A model generated the notes under the pieces. It saw nothing but the letters and a program-made list of their open reading frames with translations. It ran no database searches and was not told where the DNA came from. From IMG/VR virus record IMGVR_UViG_2579779116_000016, positions 1-42,915 of that record: a DNA stretch of 42,915 nt; one strand, given 5' to 3'. The translations under genes and the position numbers were made by a program. Shown one piece after another: positions 1 to 42,915 of this stretch (positions are counted from its first letter, which is position 1; every line of letters begins with the position of its first letter). The DNA comes from a virus (taxonomy: Duplodnaviria > Heunggongvirae > Uroviricota > Caudoviricetes).

Positions 1-1158
1 ATGCTCACCGTTAAGCAGATTGAAGCAGCAAAGCCGAAAGAAAAACCATACCGCCTACTCGATGGTAATGGCCTGTACCTTTATGTCCCTGTGTCAGGGA
101 AAAAGGTATGGCAGCTTCGCTACAAGATTGACGGTAAGGAGAAAATCCTGACCGTCGGAAAATATCCGCTTATGACTTTGCAGGAAGCAAGGGATAAAGC
201 ATGGACCGCGAGGAAAGACATCTCGGTTGGCATCGATCCGGTAAAGGCGAAAAAGGCTTCGTCTAACAACAATTCCTTTAGTGCGATTTACAAGGAATGG
301 TACGAGCACAAGAAGCAAGTCTGGTCAGTAGGCTATGCAACTGAACTTGCCAAAATGTTTGATGACGACATTTTACCCATCATCGGCGGTCTTGAGATTC
401 AGGATATTGAGCCGATGCAACTGTTGGAAGTAATCCGCAGATTTGAAGATCGCGGTGCAATGGAGCGAGCCAACAAAGCACGCAGAAGATGCGGCGAGGT
501 TTTCCGTTACGCTATTGTCACCGGAAGGGCTAAATATAACCCGGCACCTGACCTTGCAGACGCCATGAAAGGATACCGCAAGAAGAACTTCCCGTTTCTT
601 CCAGCAGACCAGATCCCTGCATTCAACAAAGCACTGGCAACATTTTCAGGAAGTATCGTATCGCTCATTGCGACCAAAGTTTTACGCTACACAGCCCTAA
701 GAACGAAAGAGCTTCGTTCCATGCTATGGAAGAACGTCGATTTTGAAAACAGGATTATCACCATCGACGCCAGTGTGATGAAGGGACGCAAAATTCATGT
801 GGTCCCGATGTCGGACCAGGTGGTTGAACTTCTCACTACGCTAAGCTCCATCACTAAACCAGTATCAGAGTTTGTTTTTGCCGGGCGCAACGATAAGAAG
901 AAGCCAATCTGCGAGAACGCGGTATTGCTTGTGATCAAACAAATCGGCTATGAGGGTCTGGAAAGCGGTCACGGATTCAGGCATGAATTCAGCACGATTA
1001 TGAACGAGCACGAATGGCCCGCTGATGCTATTGAAGTGCAACTGGCACATGCCAACGGCGGATCTGTGCGCGGGATTTACAACCATGCTCAGTATCTCGA
1101 TAAGCGCAGAGAAATGATGCAATGGTGGGCGGACTGGCTTGATGAAAAGGTGGAGTGA
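1..1158 (+). CDS. intS: Tyrosine integrase, P4-type, argW-specific (IntS-like)
   Basis: 385-aa ORF starting with ATG at base 1; translation matches my recollection of E. coli IntS of KplE1/CPS-53; position at prophage end next to tRNA-derived att. Confidence 0.88.
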   Translation: MLTVKQIEAAKPKEKPYRLLDGNGLYLYVPVSGKKVWQLRYKIDGKEKILTVGKYPLMTLQEARDKAWTARKDISVGIDPVKAKKASSNNNSFSAIYKEWYEHKKQVWSVGYATELAKMFDDDILPIIGGLEIQDIEPMQLLEVIRRFEDRGAMERANKARRRCGEVFRYAIVTGRAKYNPAPDLADAMKGYRKKNFPFLPADQIPAFNKALATFSGSIVSLIATKVLRYTALRTKELRSMLWKNVDFENRIITIDASVMKGRKIHVVPMSDQVVELLTTLSSITKPVSEFVFAGRNDKKKPICENAVLLVIKQIGYEGLESGHGFRHEFSTIMNEHEWPADAIEVQLAHANGGSVRGIYNHAQYLDKRREMMQWWADWLDEKVE

Positions 1159-1168
1159 TCCACCTTAG

Positions 1169-1618
1169 CTATCGAATGACACAAAGCCTTGAAATCCAGT
1201 GCAAAGCTTTTGGTACCTTGGTTTTGTCTAACGTCAAAGGGCAATCATCAAACTCACCTGTACGCGCATCGTTGATGATGTAGGTGATCACGCCAAACAC
1301 TGGCCGTGATGTATCCGACCCATCGTCTTTCAGCGGTAATGGCTCTCTTCTCCCATTTTCAGGGTTTTCCAGATACGGCTGCGGATGTGTCCTGTAGCGC
1401 ATAATCCTGAACTCACCATCAATAGCGCACACCAATAGAGAACCGTCTTTCGGTGTCAGCGACGAGTCGACGATAAGCATTGCACCTTTCATGATGCCAG
1501 CGCGCAGGTATGTAGAGCCCGCTATCATCATGTACGTAGCCGCCGGATGCGCGATTAGACGCTTGTCGAGCGATATGCGCTCCTCTACGTAATCTTGTGC
1601 TGGACTCGGGAATCCCAT
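1169..1618 (-). CDS. UmuD'-like protein (S24 peptidase/LexA C-terminal fold) beginning at the position of the UmuD' N-terminus; catalytic Ser/Lys apparently substituted
   Basis: 149-aa ORF with ATG and GGAGG RBS; N-terminus GFPSPAQDYVEERI...HPAATY...LIVDS...DGEF...VFGV aligns with UmuD from its Cys24-Gly25 cleavage site onward; positions of UmuD Ser60 and Lys97 appear to be Thr and Met/Arg by eye alignment; LexA box immediately upstream. Confidence 0.6.
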   Translation of the reverse strand: MGFPSPAQDYVEERISLDKRLIAHPAATYMMIAGSTYLRAGIMKGAMLIVDSSLTPKDGSLLVCAIDGEFRIMRYRTHPQPYLENPENGRREPLPLKDDGSDTSRPVFGVITYIINDARTGEFDDCPLTLDKTKVPKALHWISRLCVIR

Positions 1619-1635
1619 AACTCACCTCCGATAGT

Positions 1636-1655
1636 TACTGTATATGCATACAGTA
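1636..1655. promoter_or_regulatory. LexA (SOS) box overlapping the promoter of the UmuD'-like gene
   Basis: Perfect CTGT-N8-ACAG palindrome TACTGTATATGCATACAGTA, 18-37 nt upstream of the minus-strand start codon; candidate -35 TTGATC and -10 TAATAC just upstream on the minus strand. Confidence 0.7.
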
Positions 1656-1743
1656 TTATTGATCGGTGATGTCGATCAAGTGCTGTCTCATTTGATGTCT
1701 AGATGCTAGTATTTATGGCATTGAAAATTACAAGGAATTTGTT

Positions 1744-2406
1744 ATGAAAATTAGCAAGGGTTTGTTGGTGGCTGTGTTATGCGTTGTTGGATTGGCGTTA
1801 ACTTTCTTTATTAGAAGGGAGTATTTATCTAGCGAGAAACAAAACAAAATAAACAACTTCCAATCAGTGATGATGGACTTCAAAGACATGAACCTTGACC
1901 AGGCTGATGGTGACTATATTGTTTTTGGTGACTCTTTGATTCAGGGGATGAGCCATTATATTCTTGGCGTTAAATACGTCAACATGGGTGTTGGTGGGTA
2001 TACAGCATCGCAAATCACACAGTTAATTACATCTTCAAGCTTAGAGAAATATAAGAAAGTGCTCATTGAAGGTGGTGTTAATGATGCTCTTAGTCAATTA
2101 ACAGCAGAGCAGATAGGAAGGAAGATGAATGAAGCAATGGACGCAGCCCATGGAAAGGAGATCGTTCTTATTCAGATTCTACCATTGCTTGAATCTGCCA
2201 GGAAAGATTTCAAGAGAGTAAATGATAAAATACGTACCATCAATGCAATAACATCAAAACATTGCAAATCTATGCCTAAATGCTCTGTTGTTGATGTTCC
2301 AGAAGACTTTTTTAATGCTCCTAATGATTTTTATATGCCTGATGGAGTTCATCTTAGAAGTTATGGTTACCATGCATGGGCAAATCACATCAAACTTGCA
2401 CTATAG
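1744..2406 (+). CDS. SGNH/GDSL-family hydrolase with N-terminal membrane anchor (cargo gene in the lysogenic-conversion slot between int and tailspike)
   Basis: 220-aa ORF, AT-rich; N-terminal hydrophobic segment LLVAVLCVVGLALTFFI; GDSL block IVFGDSLIQG about 20 residues after the anchor; AAGGAA RBS. Confidence 0.7.
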   Translation: MKISKGLLVAVLCVVGLALTFFIRREYLSSEKQNKINNFQSVMMDFKDMNLDQADGDYIVFGDSLIQGMSHYILGVKYVNMGVGGYTASQITQLITSSSLEKYKKVLIEGGVNDALSQLTAEQIGRKMNEAMDAAHGKEIVLIQILPLLESARKDFKRVNDKIRTINAITSKHCKSMPKCSVVDVPEDFFNAPNDFYMPDGVHLRSYGYHAWANHIKLAL

Positions 2407-2410
2407 GTTA

Positions 2411-2430
2411 TGTGGGCCGTCAGGCCCACA
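2411..2430. terminator. Bidirectional intrinsic terminator hairpin between convergent SGNH gene and tailspike
   Basis: TGTGGGCC-GTCA-GGCCCACA perfect 8-bp stem, flanked by A/T-rich runs, located between the two convergent stop codons. Confidence 0.6.
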
Positions 2431-2433
2431 ATT

Positions 2434-4650
2434 TTATTGTATGTTTGTTATCTCTCCTGATACCATTGCTTTTATTGTCTGCCCGCCAGCTGGCTCTCCT
2501 TTGAGTACGAATCCCACCCTGCTAGTGTTTGAACCAAAAAGAAGATCTGCCCCTTTAGTTTGGTCGTAGAAAGTGTATGCATTGACGGTCCTCACCACTT
2601 GATCTGATGTTGTCACCCCAATTAATGATGTTTGACCATCCCTCTTAAGAAGTCCAGATAGTCCTGTAGATCTGCGCAAAGCGGCTGATATAGATATTGC
2701 GTAACCATCATATCCTGAAGGGGTTGATAGTTGAGCAAATCTTAGGAATTCAATACTTTGACCAGCTGCAGCAGTTGCATAGAGTCCATTGAAAATGAAT
2801 TTAGTAAATGATTGTCCACTTACGGTGGTGTCATAGCCTCTCTCGCAGGATAACGATTTAAACGCATATGTTGCATTTAGGAGTATTGTATTTTGTGATC
2901 TGGTAAGATTGTTTATCTTCATTGAAGGGAATTTCGACATATCTAGAATTCCATTTATCGATCCATTTCTGTCTGCTATGTCTATCTTTGTTTGTGTGTC
3001 TGTGTAATTGTTCTCAATGGTAAAAGATGAGAAAACACTAGGGTTGTCAATTTGATGGAATGTTTGACCAAAGTAATTACCGGAAATTGTGAGAGATTCT
3101 GGCTGGTTGTAGATGTATAGCTTGCTCTTTTCTACGTACATCCCAGTTACGCTTACGCCCTTGCAGTTTCCTATCTGTATTTCTCCGGACTCTACAGTGG
3201 AGTTGGTCAGGCTGATTCCCCATGTGTCAACGTAGACATCCTTCCCTGACTCGTGAGCATAGATAAGAGCGCTATCAAGTGTTAGCGTGTTTCCTGATAT
3301 TCCTGTTATTAACTTCGCATCAAGTCCCGCGTTTCCCTGAATCTCTATTATGTCCCACTTTAAAAAACCAGAAGCGCTTGCAACTGTTATCGAGTTGGCA
3401 CCTGCGGCAACATCTCTGGAAAGCGTCGTCTTTGGTGCATTGATGTTTATCGCTGCGGATCCAGATTGTCCGCTAGCTTGCAGGTAGCATCCCCCATGGA
3501 GTTTCACGGAGTTACCCCTCACTCTTACACCATTGAGGGTTCTTACTGAGCCGTTGATGGTTCCTGCAGTTTTCCCTGTGAACTCACCAACGATGCAGCA
3601 GATATCGACATCTGAAGATCGATGATTTACTGACTTGAAATCCCAGTGTCCATAAAACGCGTTAAGTACAACCCTGTCAGCGGCTAATGCCCCACGGGTT
3701 GAGACGCCGCCATCAATTGTAAATCCATCAACAATCTGGTCATGGTGAAGGCGGTCTCTCGATCTATCTCTTGGGTCAATGATTATATGGTGCATTGAGA
3801 TATCAGAAGATGTTGAGTTGAGGACTGTGCCGTCCTGACCAGCTCCAGACCACCTAAATCCTCTCTTGTCTACATCGAGCGTGAAACCTCCTATGCTGTA
3901 AACTCCGGCAGGGAAAGAAAGGCTCCTCATGTTTGCCTGCGCACGAGCAACACGGTTCCCCTCATCAACAGCTGCGACGTTTTCTACATCAGTGCCGCCA
4001 AACTCGAATGACGCATAGTTCATGTCAGGGAAACATACCAGATTGGCGTATTTACCTGCGGGCAACGTCAGGCTAAAAGTATTCAGATCCTGATTGGAGG
4101 AAATAACCCATTCTGATACGTTTTTTACTCCTTTCCCGTTCACGTACGTTCTGACGTGCATTCCATCTGGTACGCCACTAAAGTCTGTTTCCAGTAACTG
4201 TGTTACAGTTTCTATAGTGTAAATACGTCGAGACAAGGCGTTAGCAACGGTAGTGTCTAATGGGTCACCAACAAGAATTGATCCTGTACTCTCTCCGAGT
4301 CTTTGCTCAAGGCGATCAGGGTCATACTTCAGCACATTAGGAAAATAGAACTGCTGTGCACCATACGCATCATAAACAGCCATAGAATGGCCTTGCACAG
4401 TTACGAATTTGGCAATCTGTCCGTTATATACAGGATATCCAGCAGCGTTAATAATAATTGGTTGCGAAACAGGAACGTGAGAACCGTCTTCGTTCTCCAC
4501 ATAAACCTGAATCTGGTTTTCAGGATTTACAGGGTCAGTGTCAATTTTTCCGATATAAATTTTACCATTGGCTACGGCTTTAAAAGAACGCGCCATAGTG
4601 AAGAGTTGCGAAGGCATCGATACGATCACATTGGCTGTAATGTCTGTCAT
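2434..4650 (-). CDS. Tailspike protein: P22-type N-terminal head-binding domain fused to a distinct receptor-binding beta-helix domain
   Basis: 738-aa ORF; first ~110 residues ([11 protein letters not shown]...[33 protein letters not shown]...[12 protein letters not shown]...VLKYDPD) closely resemble the P22 gp9 head-binding domain; remainder is Gly/Ser/Asn-rich repeat typical of beta-helix tailspikes. Confidence 0.9.
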
Positions 4651-4817
4651 TTAATTTGCTCCAGATACAAGGAATCGCCGCAGCATGGCTACGGTGAGTT
4701 TTTTGTGATAAAACAACTTTTTCGGAAGTTATTTTGTTCGCTTTTCGACCTACACTTTTTATGTAGGTCTCTCCTTCAAGCTCATTGCCTAAGCGTGGCT
4801 GCGGTGAATTTTGGGCA

Positions 4818-4841
4818 TAAAAAAACCCAGCCGAAGCTGGG
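4818..4841 (-). terminator. Intrinsic terminator downstream of ant
   Basis: On minus strand CCCAGC-UUCG-GCUGGG followed by a U-run (forward strand A-run 4818-4825 then hairpin 4826-4841). Confidence 0.55.
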
Positions 4842-4860
4842 TCGTTGCGTTGGTTATCTG

Positions 4861-5796
4861 TCAGTAATTATGTACTGAAGGAGGTAATTCTTTATTCTTA
4901 AGTCTCATCCATGCGGAAAGATTCGTTGGTCCGTCTGGCTCATTAATATCAACATCTCGTGTGTGATTGATTAAAACGTCTCTCGCCATTCCGATAACAT
5001 ACGAGAACTCATGACCGTAGTCGTAGCATCTGCCTGAATAGTTCGATTGAATTTGTTTTAGCGCCGGATACAGTTCGCGGAATAATGCCTGTGAGCGGTT
5101 GGCATAATCCCATAACCATACAAGGCTGTTTGCTTCTTTTGCAGAAAGCTCGTTTGCTTTCTTCTCTTGTTTGCCGATTAACTCGCCTTCAAGCGGAACG
5201 CGAGCTGCAAGTGACAGAGCTTCGGTAAACTGCTCATCGCTGATTTCTTTGTATGAACACCCAAAATGAGATTTCAGTGACGACCACATGGTAATCATTG
5301 CCTTCGCCTGTTTTTCTTTTGGCAGAGACTGACCGCGACTCATGACGAGTTGTTTAATGGCTTCCTGCTGTTCAGTGGTGATTTTACCCGGCAACGCCTT
5401 TTTAGCTTTGCGTGGGTTAACTACATGGCCTTTAGTCCAGTAGTCATGCAGCACGCTAAAGCATTCCTCCTGGTACTGAATCAGTTTATCACGGATGTCA
5501 GCACGAACTTTCTCAGGGTTGATGCTGAACAGCCATCCATTTAACTTCTTCAAAGGAAGGCAGAGTAGCTTACGAAGCTTCCCATCAGCGGCAACCATGT
5601 TCATATGAACACAGTTGAATTTGCTAATCTGCTTCATGAGTTTTGTTTGCTGCGTTGACCAGCTCATTCCAAGGTTTTCAACGATTGGCTTCATCGCAAC
5701 GTATGCAACTCCGGCAGCCATGGCGGTGATAATTTGCTGACCGTTGAATGGTACGTAAGAGGTGTTCACTGCTTCTAAAATTGCTATACTATTCAT
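4861..5796 (-). CDS. ant: Antirepressor Ant (P22 immI type)
   Basis: ORF track gives 4861..5862 from a TTG; ATG at 5796 with GGAGA RBS gives [21 protein letters not shown]..., matching my recollection of the P22 Ant N-terminus; sits downstream of arc as in P22. Confidence 0.85.
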
Positions 5797-5864
5797 GTTG
5801 GTTTTTCTCCACGGATTTACTGACAACCGAAGCCCTGACTGTTCCCGCAGTTGGGGCTTCAACT

Positions 5865-6026
5865 TTACGCGCCAATGCGCCCTTCCCTCTTAAAGCTTTC
5901 CATTACTCTCTGATAAATCTCAGAGTTAACAGACCGACCATTCTCTTCCGCCACCTTGCGTACCAAATCTAATACTTCTTTAGGCCACCGCAAATTGAAC
6001 TGCGGCATCTTGCTCATTCCTTTCAT
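5865..6026 (-). CDS. arc: Arc repressor (ribbon-helix-helix)
   Basis: 53-aa product [53 protein letters not shown], essentially P22 Arc; the track ORF is an upstream in-frame extension. Confidence 0.95.
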
Positions 6027-6040
6027 ATTCACCTCACAAT

Positions 6041-6061
6041 ATAGGTCCACCGTGGACCTAT
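6041..6061. promoter_or_regulatory. Mnt operator (Omnt)-like perfect palindrome in the arc/mnt divergent promoter region
   Basis: ATAGGTCCACCGTGGACCTAT is a perfect odd-centred palindrome between arc and mnt. Confidence 0.6.
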
Positions 6062-6068
6062 TGAGAAT

Positions 6069-6089
6069 ATAGTAGAGTGCTTCTATCAT
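6069..6089. promoter_or_regulatory. Arc operator (Oarc)-like partially symmetric site
   Basis: ATAGTAGAGTGCTTCTATCAT between Omnt and mnt; resembles the P22 arc operator by recollection. Confidence 0.5.
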
Positions 6090-6116
6090 GTCAATACACT
6101 AACTTGGAGTGATGGC

Positions 6117-6368
6117 ATGGCTAGAGATGATCCGCACTTTAACTTCCGTATGCCTATGGAAGTAAGGGAGAAATTAAAATTCAGGGCGGAGGCGAATGGG
6201 AGATCAATGAACTCCGAGTTGTTACAAATCGTCCAAGATGCTCTATCAAAACCATCGCCTGTGACTGGATATCGTGACGATGCAGAACGACTCGCTGATG
6301 AGCAGTCAGATCTTGTTAAGAAGATGGTGTTTGATACGCTGAAGGATTTGTACAAAAAAACCACCTGA
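6117..6368 (+). CDS. mnt: Mnt repressor (maintenance of lysogeny, ribbon-helix-helix)
   Basis: 83-aa product MARDDPHFNFRMPMEVREKLKFRAEANGRSMNSELLQIVQDAL..., essentially P22 Mnt. Confidence 0.95.
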   Translation: MARDDPHFNFRMPMEVREKLKFRAEANGRSMNSELLQIVQDALSKPSPVTGYRDDAERLADEQSDLVKKMVFDTLKDLYKKTT

Positions 6369-11514: not shown

Positions 11515-11970
11515 CTATCTCCCGTGATTCAGGAAGTCGATTAGTTCTTCGCGTGTTGCGCTGTAAAACGTCACGTCATCCACGCCTTTGAAGTATTTCT
11601 TGATGGTTCCTACACGATTAAGGCCAATCATTGCGCAGTACATCTGACCGTGGCGGAATTTGCGTGCAGCGAACGATGTGACGCACTGAACGGTGGTGTT
11701 AGTCAGAATGTATCGCCAGAACGCCAGCCCGATTTCCTTGCTGAATCCACGAACCTCTGGCAGGTACATGGCGTGGCAATCGAAGGTCAGCGGCTGAATC
11801 TCCTGATAGTAAACAATGCCGCCAAACTGCCCGTGCACGTTCACCTCAAAGTAACGGCATTCAGGTTTGTAGTCGTATCCATCACCGTTGTTGCTACCAG
11901 CGATAATGTCAGGGTGATTTCCGACTGCTTCGATCAGGTCGATGTTTCGCGTTGGTTTGAACTGAATCAT
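11515..11970 (-). CDS. Head/tail-associated protein, P22 gp14 equivalent
   Basis: About 151 aa; ATG at 11970 (track ORF begins at GTG 11973); position between tail needle and gp7 equivalents. Confidence 0.65.
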   Translation of the reverse strand: MIQFKPTRNIDLIEAVGNHPDIIAGSNNGDGYDYKPECRYFEVNVHGQFGGIVYYQEIQPLTFDCHAMYLPEVRGFSKEIGLAFWRYILTNTTVQCVTSFAARKFRHGQMYCAMIGLNRVGTIKKYFKGVDDVTFYSATREELIDFLNHGR

Positions 11971-12818
11971 CACTGCTCCGCGATTATCTTGATGGTTGTG
12001 GCAGTAAACGCCGCACCATTTGACTGAATGGTTAACGTGCTGCCATTTGTGGCAAGAAAGCCGTCTTTATCCACGCTGAAGAACGTAGCTAACAGGATGT
12101 TATCGGTTGTTGTCGCCGCATTACGACTGCTCACAAGTGTGTCAGGAACAGAGCCGGAAAAGGTTAGTTGCATTGATCTGTTGGCGGTTCCGCTGGGCCA
12201 CGTCCCGACAATCGACAGCTTGAAGAACAAGGTTTTGTTCTCGTTGAACACAACCATCTTGTTGTTAACGGTGTCGAAGAATGGTGCCAACGAGCCGGAT
12301 GACGGCGTGAGCGTTTTCAGCAGGCTAACAAGGTTAGTCGGCGCTGTCGGGATGGTTACAGATACGCCAGAGTAAACAACCTCTGACTTCTTGCGAGTAG
12401 TGGCATACTCAAGAGCATCGATGCGCGTTTCATGGTCTGAAAGCGTGTTTTGAATGGCGGCAACTTCATCCGTCAGGTAATCAATATCGTTTTCTGCTGT
12501 CGTTAATCGTGAATCAAGGCCGACTATCGCCGCTTCTGCGTTAGTGATCCTTGTTTCGTGGTCCTGTATCTTCGCTTCAGCCGATGCCAGTCGAATTTCG
12601 TGATCGACCAGAATCACATCCTGCTCATCGTTCCTGACTTGTGCGTCATAAGCGCCCTGCCCGGCTTCGTTGGCCTTGTTCGCCACGTTACCAACATCAG
12701 TACCCTGTGCGATAACGTACAACAGATATGACTGCGAGAAGATATTGCGTGGAAGGACTGATGTATCGAGCCGCGTAGCCTGCACAATAACAGGGGTATT
12801 GAGATTCGAATCCGCCAT
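11970..12818 (-). CDS. Tail needle (P22 gp26-like N-terminus) with extended C-terminal domain
   Basis: 282 aa; N-terminus [43 protein letters not shown]...[18 protein letters not shown] matches P22 gp26; heptad-rich middle; C-terminal ~100 aa extra relative to my recollection of P22 gp26 (Sf6-type knob). Confidence 0.85.
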
Positions 12819-14236
12819 TACTCAATCCTTATCTGGCAGCCAGACAAAGTGACAGGTGACTTCGTGATAACGCGCAATTTGAAGCCAATGTTTTTCCTGA
12901 TGCGCCCTACTTTCTTCCACAAAACGCGTTTGTCGTAAACGAACGGTTCATTCTGCTCAATCATCTGCTCACGACCGTAATTGATGCCGTCAGTGGTTGC
13001 AGAGAGGAACAGGCGGTCGGCGTACTGAGCTACGCCAGTGGATGATTCCACCTCCAGATCGAAGCATCTGGCGTTATCCGCTTTGAACAGTGGAGTAAAC
13101 AACAGGTGTTCCTGTTGAAGCCCATACTGGCTGCTGATATCGAACTGCAATTTGCCGGTAACCGATTCCAGCTTATCGCCGCACGTTATCTGATTGCCTT
13201 CGTAAATGAAGTCGATAGCGCGGTACACATCGTCATACAAGCCAGTTTTCAACACACACCATTGCGGACCATTGGCGCTTGAAGATGCGTCGTACACGAG
13301 GACGTGACGCGGAAGATGGATAATCAGCAATTCATGAGCATCAAACCGCAGCGATTCCATCACACCATCAGCCAGTTCATCAGCAGTGTAGGAGCGGAGG
13401 ATTTTCTCAATGCTCGCGCTGGCGATTGGTGACACCTGACCGGAGCCGATGATATACACAGACGGCGCACCCGTTGCCGGATTGCTGATGAACGCATGCG
13501 AATCAGCAAACGGCGTTTTGCAGTAAGTCCCGGCGATGCCTTTTTGCACCATCAGTGATGGCTGTGCGACATACAAAGCAGCACCAACGGTGGTTGCGCC
13601 AGTCAGGGAGAAATATTCAATAGTCGATGAACCAAAGCAGACGATGAAGTCTCGCCATGTCCCGATACCGATGATGCCGTCCGGCTGAGACTCGGCACGA
13701 TATTGTGCGCTGTAACGGTCAGGATGCGATTCGTCTTCAAGGTCAGTGATAAACCATGAATCAGTGCCGTCTTTTGACCACGCATAACGCCCACGTAAGC
13801 GCGTAATGTCGCGAACTGAACCTAACTCATACTGAGTGAATCCACTGTCTGTAGGCCAGTTTGAGACGGTTTTAACCGTGCCATCATAGCGATACTCGAC
13901 CAGTTGACCATTAACGCCTACCGCCTGTGATGTCCGACCATGCGCCATTGATACACGACCACTTCCGGCAACGTCACCGACTTCACTTTCTCCTTTGTAC
14001 AGCTTGCCACCACACACACGATAAACAGCACTCTGCGCCATGTTGTACTCGACGCCGCGAGATACACCGTTCACATCAGAGCGTTTGGCAATGCCCGGGA
14101 ATGAGCGAATATATCCGCTGCTGTTGAGTATTTCTTTGGGCGTAGCCAGCATATTCACTGGCAGATAGTCGATATAATCGGCGTTTCGGAAGTCTTTGCC
14201 GACACCTTTCATAAGCGGAAGTTGCTGAATCGGCAT
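12818..14236 (-). CDS. Tail accessory / head-completion protein, P22 gp10 equivalent
   Basis: 472-aa ORF; size and synteny (between gp4 and gp26 equivalents). Confidence 0.85.
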
Positions 14237-14245
14237 TTATTCACC

Positions 14246-14707
14246 TCACGTACTCGGATCATCTTTCTCGATGTAAAACCGATTCCACGTAAACGCGCTT
14301 TTGTTACCACTACCGCGAGGCATGTCATTTCGCCGCTCAAGTGGTGGTATTTTGGTTAAAGCGATACAGATTGTTTGATATGCACTGTCAGCAGCGGTAA
14401 GGAGAGCGTCTGACGGCTGAATGACGTTATCCATGCACACTTGCACAGCGAGTTTCAAAGCGACGCCATCATTTGCCCATGCAGGGATACCTGAATCATC
14501 GTCAGGTAACGGCATGATGCCGTTTTCTGTATCAGCAAACTGATACCCAAGCTCGATACCTTTCGCCTGCCATGCTGCCATCATGTCTTCGAGGTCATTA
14601 ATGGCATCTTCAATTGCCTGAGGGTCGGCATCTGTCAACGTGGCATTGGAATACAGCCCGGCTTTTCGTAAAGCCTTAAGAACGAGATCACCCTTCGTTT
14701 TCGCCAT
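14246..14707 (-). CDS. Tail accessory protein, P22 gp4 equivalent
   Basis: 153 aa; N-terminus KTKGDLV.KALRK.G...ATLTD..PQ...DA..DLE.MMA.W resembles P22 gp4. Confidence 0.85.
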   Translation of the reverse strand: MAKTKGDLVLKALRKAGLYSNATLTDADPQAIEDAINDLEDMMAAWQAKGIELGYQFADTENGIMPLPDDDSGIPAWANDGVALKLAVQVCMDNVIQPSDALLTAADSAYQTICIALTKIPPLERRNDMPRGSGNKSAFTWNRFYIEKDDPST

Positions 14708-41667: not shown

Positions 41668-42915
41668 CTATATTGCTGAAGGTACAGGCGTTTCCATAAC
41701 TATTTGCTCGCGTTTTTTACTCAAGAAGAAAATGCCAAATAGCAACATCAGGCAGACAATACCCGAAATTGCGAAGAAAACTGTCTGGTAGCCTGCGTGG
41801 TCAAAGAGTATCCCAGTCGGCGTTGAAAGCAGCACAATCCCAAGCGAACTGGCAATTTGAAAACCAATCAGAAAGATCGTCGACGACAGGCGCTTATCAA
41901 AGTTTGCCACGCTGTATTTGAAGACGGATATGACACAAAGTGGAACCTCAATGGCATGTAACAACTTCACTAATGAAATAATCCAGGGGTTAACGAACAG
42001 CGCGCAGGAAAGGATACGCAACGCCATAATCACAACTCCGATAAGTAATGCATTTTTTGGCCCTACCCGATTCACAAAGAAAGGAATAATCGCCATGCAC
42101 AGCGCTTCGAGTACCACCTGGAATGAGTTGAGATAACCATACAGGCGCGTTCCTACATCGTGTGATTCGAATAAACCTGCATAAAAGACAGGAAAAAGTT
42201 GTTGATCAAAAATGTTATAGAAAGACCACGTCCCCACAATAAATATGACGAAAACCCAGAAGTTTCGATCCTTGAAAACTGCGATAAAATCCTCTTTTTT
42301 TACCCCTCCCGCATCTGCCGCTACGCACTGGTGATCCTTATCTTTAAAACGCATGTTGATCATCATAAATACAGCGCCAAATAGCGAGACCAACCAGAAG
42401 TTGATATGGGGACTGATACTAAAAAATATGCCGGCAAAGAACGCGCCAATAGCATAGCCAAAAGATCCCCAGGCGCGCGCTGTTCCATATTCGAAATGAA
42501 AATTTCGCGCCATTTTTTCGGTGAAGCTATCAAGCAAACCGCATCCCGCCAGATACCCCAAGCCAAAAAATAGCGCCCCCAGAATTAGACCTACAGAAAA
42601 ATTGCTTTGCAGTAACGGTTCATAAACGTAAATCATAAACGGTCCGGTCAAGACCAGGATGAAACTCATACACCAGATGAGCGGTTTCTTCAGACCGAGT
42701 TTATCCTGAACGATGCCGTAGAACATCATAAATAGAATGCTGGTAAACTGGTTGACCGAATAAAGTGTACCTAATTCCGTCCCTGTCAACCCTAGATGTC
42801 CTTTCAGCCAAATAGCGTATAACGACCACCACAGCGACCAGGAAATAAAAAAGAGAAATGAGTAACTGGATGCAAAACGATAGTACGCATTTCTGAATGG
42901 AATATTCAGTGCCAT
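41668..42915 (-). CDS. cscB: LacY-family sugar:H+ symporter, sucrose permease CscB-like (host gene flanking the prophage)
   Basis: 415-aa 12-TM ORF; translation matches my recollection of E. coli CscB; start codon at the last base of the window. Confidence 0.85.
   Translation of the reverse strand: MALNIPFRNAYYRFASSYSFLFFISWSLWWSLYAIWLKGHLGLTGTELGTLYSVNQFTSILFMMFYGIVQDKLGLKKPLIWCMSFILVLTGPFMIYVYEPLLQSNFSVGLILGALFFGLGYLAGCGLLDSFTEKMARNFHFEYGTARAWGSFGYAIGAFFAGIFFSISPHINFWLVSLFGAVFMMINMRFKDKDHQCVAADAGGVKKEDFIAVFKDRNFWVFVIFIVGTWSFYNIFDQQLFPVFYAGLFESHDVGTRLYGYLNSFQVVLEALCMAIIPFFVNRVGPKNALLIGVVIMALRILSCALFVNPWIISLVKLLHAIEVPLCVISVFKYSVANFDKRLSSTIFLIGFQIASSLGIVLLSTPTGILFDHAGYQTVFFAISGIVCLMLLFGIFFLSKKREQIVMETPVPSAI

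Follow-up and report, generated by a model that had tools for sequence, protein, structure and literature searches.

A mosaic P22-type tailspike with a TSP4-family body, probably an O41 O-antigen depolymerase, linked to an SGNH hydrolase gene in a CUS-3-like prophage

The DNA considered here, hereafter the window, is a stretch of 42,915 nucleotides covering positions 1 to 42,915 of the IMG/VR virus record IMGVR_UViG_2579779116_000016, and our subject is a tailspike gene located at positions 2434-4650 on its minus strand, within a P22-like (CUS-3-like) prophage that appears intact and is integrated at argW. The gene is a single open reading frame (ORF) with an ATG start, encoding 738 residues followed by a stop codon, exactly as the initial annotation had placed it. 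The identical protein is deposited as EZG32405.1 / WP_050442468.1, and its sole GenBank annotation is 'phage head-binding domain-containing protein'. From the N-terminus, with every part encoded on the minus strand, the protein comprises a head-binding (particle-attachment) domain (residues 1-113; 4312-4650), a linker with the body's small N-terminal beta domain (residues 116-215; 4006-4305), a right-handed parallel beta-helix presumed to carry the catalytic and receptor-binding groove (residues 216-600; 2851-4005), an inserted small beta module that interrupts the helix (residues ~405-472; 3235-3438) and a C-terminal beta-sandwich (residues 601-738; 2437-2850). Convergent with the tailspike gene, at 1744-2406 on the plus strand, lies the gene of a membrane-anchored SGNH/GDSL hydrolase of 220 residues, occupying the lysogenic-conversion slot (Pfam PF13472, E 2.9e-15). 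The two are separated by a GC-rich hairpin at 2411-2430, with an 8-bp stem containing 6 GC pairs and a following run of T, which is a likely terminator.

The anchor domain matches Head_binding (Pfam PF09008) over residues 1-113 with the full profile covered (E 7.5e-67), a result consistent with the structure matches to Sf6 and P22, and this is the single domain found, the body having no above-threshold match in Pfam or NCBIfam. In a search of the PDB sequences, matches were limited to residues 1-118 of the tailspike (Sf6 gp14, P22 gp9 and related chains), those to P22 chains being confined to residues 1-114. The initial annotation had described the first ~110 residues as close to P22 gp9; the domain assignment stands, with 76% identity to P22 (84/111), but Sf6 (103/112, 92%) and CUS-3 (92.7% to the tailspike N-terminus) are both closer. 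The comparison with HK620, Sf6 and CUS-3 that it had recommended shows matching N-termini and distinct bodies, HK620 matching residues 1-128 only and CUS-3 residues 1-124 only. Its view that the remaining ~620 residues are unlike the P22 body is borne out, since P22 chains, the family profile and Pfam match no body sequence: no homology to the endorhamnosidase beta-helix of P22 gp9 (residues ~125-666) was detected in the PDB search, with the family profile or with Pfam. A profile built from 41 family members and run against the PDB matched anchor domains and no solved sequence for the body. A PHROG label of 'colanic acid degradation' (phrog_8280) was dismissed, its match spanning residues 1-133 only. 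The junction between anchor and body is sharp, far beyond what chance would give. Of 5,426 complete E. coli genomes, 1,130 carry DNA of the head-binding domain, and in all but one of these the similarity ends at nucleotides 335-360 of the gene, directly after the conserved KYDPD motif (residues 107-111).

The AlphaFold2 monomer model, computed with a 41-sequence alignment as input, shows the right-handed beta-helix that had been proposed for checking by structure prediction, at residues 216-600. The pLDDT score (predicted local distance difference test) is mostly above 90 over residues ~140-738; the model is poor in the N-terminal domain, probably owing to the mix of different anchors in the alignment. 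Strands at residues 144-211 form the small domain preceding the helix, a capping helix lies at residues 221-237, and a long series of three-strand rungs runs from residue 243 to ~600, broken at ~405-472 by the inserted module, whose strands (420-458) stand between helix rungs. Long antiparallel strands at 599-737 make up the C-terminal sandwich. The inserted module bears a weak resemblance to the Rider domain of Klebsiella K1 lyase (K1-lyase_Rider, PF24149), scoring 19.4 bits (E 0.0014), below the Pfam cutoff of 27. The same module, ~70 residues long, matches units repeated 10-14 times in tandem in giant proteins of 2,700-4,460 residues (P0178, P0179, P0190). The relation of the body to CBA120 TSP2 (PDB 6w4q, 5w6p) and to gp49 of Acinetobacter phage Fri1 (6c72) is at the level of the fold only, with 10-11% identity, and both differ from the tailspike in substrates and catalytic residues.

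Family-invariant residues reappear in successive rungs, on equivalent strands (R326, K383, T408, T485/E487 and Y505/E507), and two others, D349 and R376, are placed on neighbouring strands. Since E487 and E507 are on matching strands 20 residues apart, they should sit side by side on one sheet, and the model suggests this pair as the best candidate for the catalytic residues, with D349 as an alternative. We propose that the body is most likely an endoglycosidase. It could instead be a polysaccharide lyase, acting by beta-elimination at a uronic acid and not as a glycoside hydrolase, an assignment that we consider unlikely while granting it an appreciable chance.

The initial annotation had interpreted the body as a swapped O-antigen specificity module. 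The swap after the anchor is supported, but the body is not one block: it is itself mosaic, with breaks in identity near residues 215, 313, 500 and 600. This is apparent from the identities per segment, taken from the family alignment in which 40 homologues were aligned. Two spikes of E. coli prophages, P0004 and P0005, are 97-98% identical to the tailspike over residues 1-115 and 98-100% over 116-215, then 71-76% over 216-313, 30-50% over 314-600 and 41-59% over 601-738; the DNA of the P0004 locus matches at 87%, only up to residue ~313. A third homologue, P0002 (81% identity), has 76% over residues 1-115, 89-93% over 116-215, 95% over 216-313, successively 92%, 90% and, past residue 500, 77% within 314-600, and 57% over 601-738. 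Spikes P0007 and P0008 (the latter from Lelliottia amnigena), which have a PF18668 anchor, are unrelated over residues 1-115, 24-54% identical over 116-215, 79-81% over 216-313, 75-82% over 314-600 and 54-58% over 601-738. Residues 116-215 are 74-94% identical to the corresponding part of spikes of 830-860 residues (P0010-P0012, P0014, P0016) and less similar to other homologues. Across the family, conservation is highest in residues 216-313, and residues 601-738 do not exceed 59% identity to any aligned homologue. The segment 314-600 splits into subtypes, with ~80-90% identity inside a subtype and ~38-56% outside, as would be expected if it carried the fine specificity. Base composition also varies along the gene, the GC content being 0.49-0.52 for residues 216-400 and 0.35 for residues 501-600, and that at third codon positions 0.31 in the last domain. 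The gene is the product of repeated recombination events, whose breaks lie after KYDPD and near residues 215, 313, 500 and 600.

The family defined by this body is small. About 44 proteins share the body in a collection of 5.8 billion proteins, and HMMER, run exhaustively over 1.84 billion representatives, returned only 17 clusters at E <= 1e-30. The anchors borne by those proteins are Head_binding, PF18668 Tail_spike_N or unrecognised segments of 230-260 residues, and the hosts of the body are Gamaleyavirus, Ackermannviridae, Kayfunavirus and Lelliottia prophages. When the body was compared by tblastn with 50,697 phage records, the relatives recovered, in lineages unrelated to P22, were Gamaleyavirus PD205 (48% identity), Agtrevirus AV101, phage Ro121c4YLVW and Kuttervirus LPST94 (~40%), Kayfunavirus ST31 (37%) and a Vibrio phage (31%), and no P22-like phage with this body was found among these records. 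TSP4 of AV101 (WJJ54146.1) aligns to residues 162-737 with 40% identity over 576 residues (E 2e-129) and keeps all of the family-invariant residues that were checked, as columns of the 41-sequence alignment. The tailspike belongs to this AV101 TSP4-type body family, probably with another specificity, as judged from the sequence comparison. AV101 TSP4 is the sole family member with experimental data: the purified protein gives translucent zones on O159 strains only and lowers the plating of AV101 by ~5 logs (PMC10791037). It differs from the tailspike described here in its 500-residue N-terminal anchor, which is mounted on the branched spike complex of a virulent Ackermannviridae myovirus, in 60% of the body residues, and in the likely serogroup, O159 versus O41. 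In the AV101 study, the receptors of the homologues in ST31, Ro121c4YLVW and PD205 are called unknown (PMC10791037); in the literature we found nothing on an O41-specific tailspike, nor on the specificity of the ST31, Ro121c4YLVW or PD205 spikes. Swappable spikes specific to E. coli serogroups are already well known (PMC10408124). Other E. coli prophage spikes (P0049-P0051, P0059, P0063) join the same head-binding domain to GDSL esterase or SASA (PF03629) bodies, and are of the deacetylase type, not the depolymerase type.

The likely receptor is indicated by the lysogen. The full gene is present in one of the 5,426 complete E. coli genomes, APEC_AN-25, at 99.7% identity, and a distant blastn search with the body over the same genomes returned no further lysogen. 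The O-antigen cluster of APEC_AN-25 contains O41-family wzx and wzy together with gmd, fcl, manC and manB. Only four of the 5,426 genomes have the O41 wzy, so that the chance of a random carrier being O41 is ~7e-4. Lysogeny by a temperate phage requires adsorption to the host, which makes O41 the best candidate receptor. The O-antigens O36, O41, O156, O159 and O168 share the uncommon unit alpha-L-Fuc-(1->3)-D-GlcNAc and the glycosyltransferase gene wfeY (PMC10606467), and this chemistry common to O41 and O159 is in keeping with the 40% homology to the enzyme acting on O159. We propose that the spike is most likely an O-antigen depolymerase whose substrate is the E. coli O41 O-antigen. Two caveats attach to this assignment: it relies on one lysogen of known serogroup, and the wfeY allele of APEC_AN-25 found no match in the three remaining O41 genomes. 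That wfeY-type gene (locus L004, 24628-25374) occurs in 19 of the 5,426 genomes and is 100% identical in four genomes outside the four with O41 wzy; the cluster may have arisen by recombination, its 5' half coming from O41 and its 3' half being foreign. In the same strain, the chain-length regulator gene wzzB (L004, 17780-20095) is split by the IS4-like ISVsa5, a disruption that might alter O-antigen length and hence phage susceptibility.

Two other targets have to be weighed against the O41 O-antigen. The spike could recognise a capsule (K antigen) or another exopolysaccharide, as does the K1 endosialidase spike of CUS-3, and the CUS-3-like backbone lends some credit to this idea, given that CUS-3 has a capsule-specific spike on the same head-binding domain. 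The pairing of a spike with an acetyl-modification gene is known for capsules too (neuO in CUS-3), and the inserted module has its weak likeness to the Rider domain of a capsule lyase. However, the only characterised member of the family tracks the O159 O-antigen, and the lone carrier among the complete genomes falls in a rare O serogroup chemically related to O159, which leaves a capsular target improbable. Alternatively, the specificity could be that of AV101 TSP4, namely O159, and the O41 host incidental. The homology extends across the whole body, with the checked invariant residues in common, and the AV101 authors expect receptors to be shared among homologues. Yet the identity is just 40%, the helix segment 314-600 divides into distinct subtypes, and a temperate phage normally lysogenises a host to which it can adsorb, here O41 and not O159; we grant an O159 specificity only a slight chance.

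The SGNH protein has one N-terminal hydrophobic (membrane) helix and all of the catalytic blocks I, II, III and V (GDSL-62, GVGG-82, GGVND-110 and DGVH-200). Beyond its gene, on the side away from the spike, is a UmuD-like S24 peptidase ORF at 1169-1618 on the minus strand (Pfam PF00717), which stands without an adjoining umuC and is annotated as a truncated HumD pseudogene in APEC_AN-25. The intact spike ORF is found in at least six assemblies, on different backbones. The first 9.5 kb of the window are 100% identical to JDFV01000024.1 of assembly GCA_000622265.1; APEC_AN-25 shares positions 1-4665 only, from the integrase to the spike start, at 99.5%, and upstream of the spike its prophage and that of the window are unrelated in DNA. 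Other carriers of a near-identical spike have ejection proteins of differing lengths, and the 220-residue SGNH gene and the S24 gene are kept after the spike in all the near-identical carriers examined. The SGNH gene also adjoins the 81% and 66% spike homologues, and the P0002 locus is collinear over spike, spacer and SGNH gene in one alignment of 2.9 kb. The identity of the SGNH protein drops alongside that of the spike, to 61% next to the 81% homologue and 38% next to the 66% homologue. The slot contains a fused AT3-SGNH acyltransferase next to the 60% homologue and next to the Lelliottia homologue, and is empty next to the 47% homologue. In one contig (L023, SRR35645304, whose cluster member P0123 is labelled Enterobacter cancerogenus), the spike-SGNH-S24 cassette lies by hut (histidine-utilisation) genes instead of argW and without an adjoining integrase, which points to another integration site and possibly another host genus.

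The SGNH family is itself small, with 27 clusters. Its commonest E. coli relative (P0230) is situated between a standalone AT3 and a spike with a different body, an arrangement that is the split version of the fused O-acetyltransferases, and in related-prophage loci (L016-L018) an AT3 fills the slot of the S24 gene, an AT3 being the companion of the SGNH relatives in other argW prophages. The idea that the SGNH family is exclusive to this body family was rejected, given the different-body spike adjoining P0230 and the other relatives in Mu-like and Aeromonas prophages. As in known AT3-SGNH O-antigen O-acetyltransferase systems and other acetylation genes that prophages carry next to tailspikes, the SGNH gene here occupies the slot between spike and integrase, and homologues with a standalone AT3 exist in common E. 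coli prophages; those systems, split or fused, have an AT3, whereas the SGNH gene is alone in the window. No AT3 (PF01757) was found in the window, where tblastn gave noise only at E <= 10 and the sole ORF with multiple transmembrane segments encodes a LacY-type symporter. The SGNH protein would be, in consequence, either a lone esterase, a leftover, or a transferase that relies on an AT3 of the host. No similarity was detectable between the standalone protein and the SGNH domain of one AT3-SGNH fusion, that of the Lelliottia locus. We favour a role for the hydrolase in the lysogen, where it would modify how the spike's own receptor is acetylated. An SGNH homologue is also paired with a protein of 289 residues bearing a faint GDSL signature (L019/L020, 4099-5681; L014, 5503-7066); the pair, which may constitute a two-gene module, adjoins Mu-like baseplate and tail-fibre genes in Lelliottia, and also the 81% spike homologue.

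The surrounding genes are those of a P22-like prophage. At its left end, by the argW tRNA site, an IntS-type integrase is encoded at 1-1158 on the plus strand, with Pfam integrase domains in locus L005 and intS beside tRNA-Arg in APEC_AN-25. Upstream of the spike, as in P22, is the immI region (ant, arc and mnt; 4861-6368; Pfam P22_AR_N/C, Arc and Repressor_Mnt), with a terminator-like hairpin at 4824-4843 on the minus strand between ant and the tailspike gene. The tail hub on which the spike would dock, at 11970-14707 on the minus strand, comprises gp4-like and gp10-like proteins together with a needle bearing an Sf6-type knob (Pfam P22_Tail-4, Phage_stabilise and Phage_tail_NK), and the backbone also encodes a portal and ejection proteins of the gp7/gp20/gp16 type. 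A LacY-family sugar symporter ORF (41668-42915, minus strand) runs past the window end and probably belongs to the host, lying beyond the prophage's right end. The closest sequenced backbone is that of CUS-3, with 95.6% identity across 63% of positions 7000-31000, the structural and late region; it too joins this head-binding domain to another body, with a 'boundary sequence' annotated where the tailspike here has its junction, but its body, an endosialidase acting on K1 capsule, is unrelated in sequence. P22 gp9 and Sf6 gp14, both endorhamnosidases, resemble the tailspike in having a head-binding anchor, a right-handed beta-helix and a C-terminal domain, as well as a gene placed after the immI region and near the integrase, and the role in O-antigen cleavage is presumably the same. 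The gene accordingly shares with P22-type modular tailspikes the anchor, the fold and the genome context, but not the P22-type endorhamnosidase body. In its functional plan it resembles the spikes of P22, Sf6, HK620 and CUS-3, each of which combines a common anchor with a swappable depolymerase. The truncated annotation of the adjoining UmuD-like gene and the want of the usual AT3 partner for the SGNH gene might suggest a functionless, decaying remnant of a defective prophage, a view that is scarcely credible given an intact 738-codon ORF conserved at 99.5-100% in several assemblies on different backbones, a full set of structural genes, and, against the 81% homologue, 89-95% protein identity over residues 116-500 with 73-87% DNA identity, which argues for purifying selection in the central body.

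Taken together, we hold with good confidence that the gene encodes a P22-type tailspike with a mosaic TSP4-family body, most likely acting as an O41 O-antigen depolymerase and co-inherited with an SGNH gene as a cassette. By analogy with P22 and Sf6, trimers of the protein would attach through the N-terminal head-binding domain to the gp4/gp10 tail hub, and the body would bind and cleave the host O-antigen, opening the way to the outer membrane for the virion. The spike and the convergent SGNH gene would be inherited as a cassette, the hydrolase probably altering the acetylation of the same polysaccharide in the lysogen. A more speculative proposal, about which we are doubtful, is that TSP4-type bodies are tuned to O-antigens containing alpha-L-Fuc-(1->3)-D-GlcNAc (O36, O41, O156, O159 and O168), that the spike is an O41 depolymerase of the endo-fucosidase type, and that its SGNH partner is obligate, the AT3 having been lost or never present, and acts alone as a periplasmic O-antigen de-O-acetylase or borrows a host AT3. 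If the de-O-acetylase or borrowed-AT3 variant were true, the receptor would be changed in the lysogen and superinfection by phages with the same spike blocked, and lysogenic conversion would proceed by the removal, and not the addition, of a modification.

Modular swaps of this kind are well known in phages, and current understanding is not overturned. The body of a tailspike determines the host range of its phage, and such bodies serve as serotype-specific probes and as antibacterial enzymes; the protein described here is a candidate reagent for O41, a rare serogroup. It also provides a second entry, from a temperate phage, into a beta-helix family in which one member has been tested and no structure solved. 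At the evolutionary level, the gene indicates that recombination in spike genes acts on units smaller than a domain, and that a spike can travel together with a surface-modification gene, as one cassette, across phage backbones and possibly across host genera.
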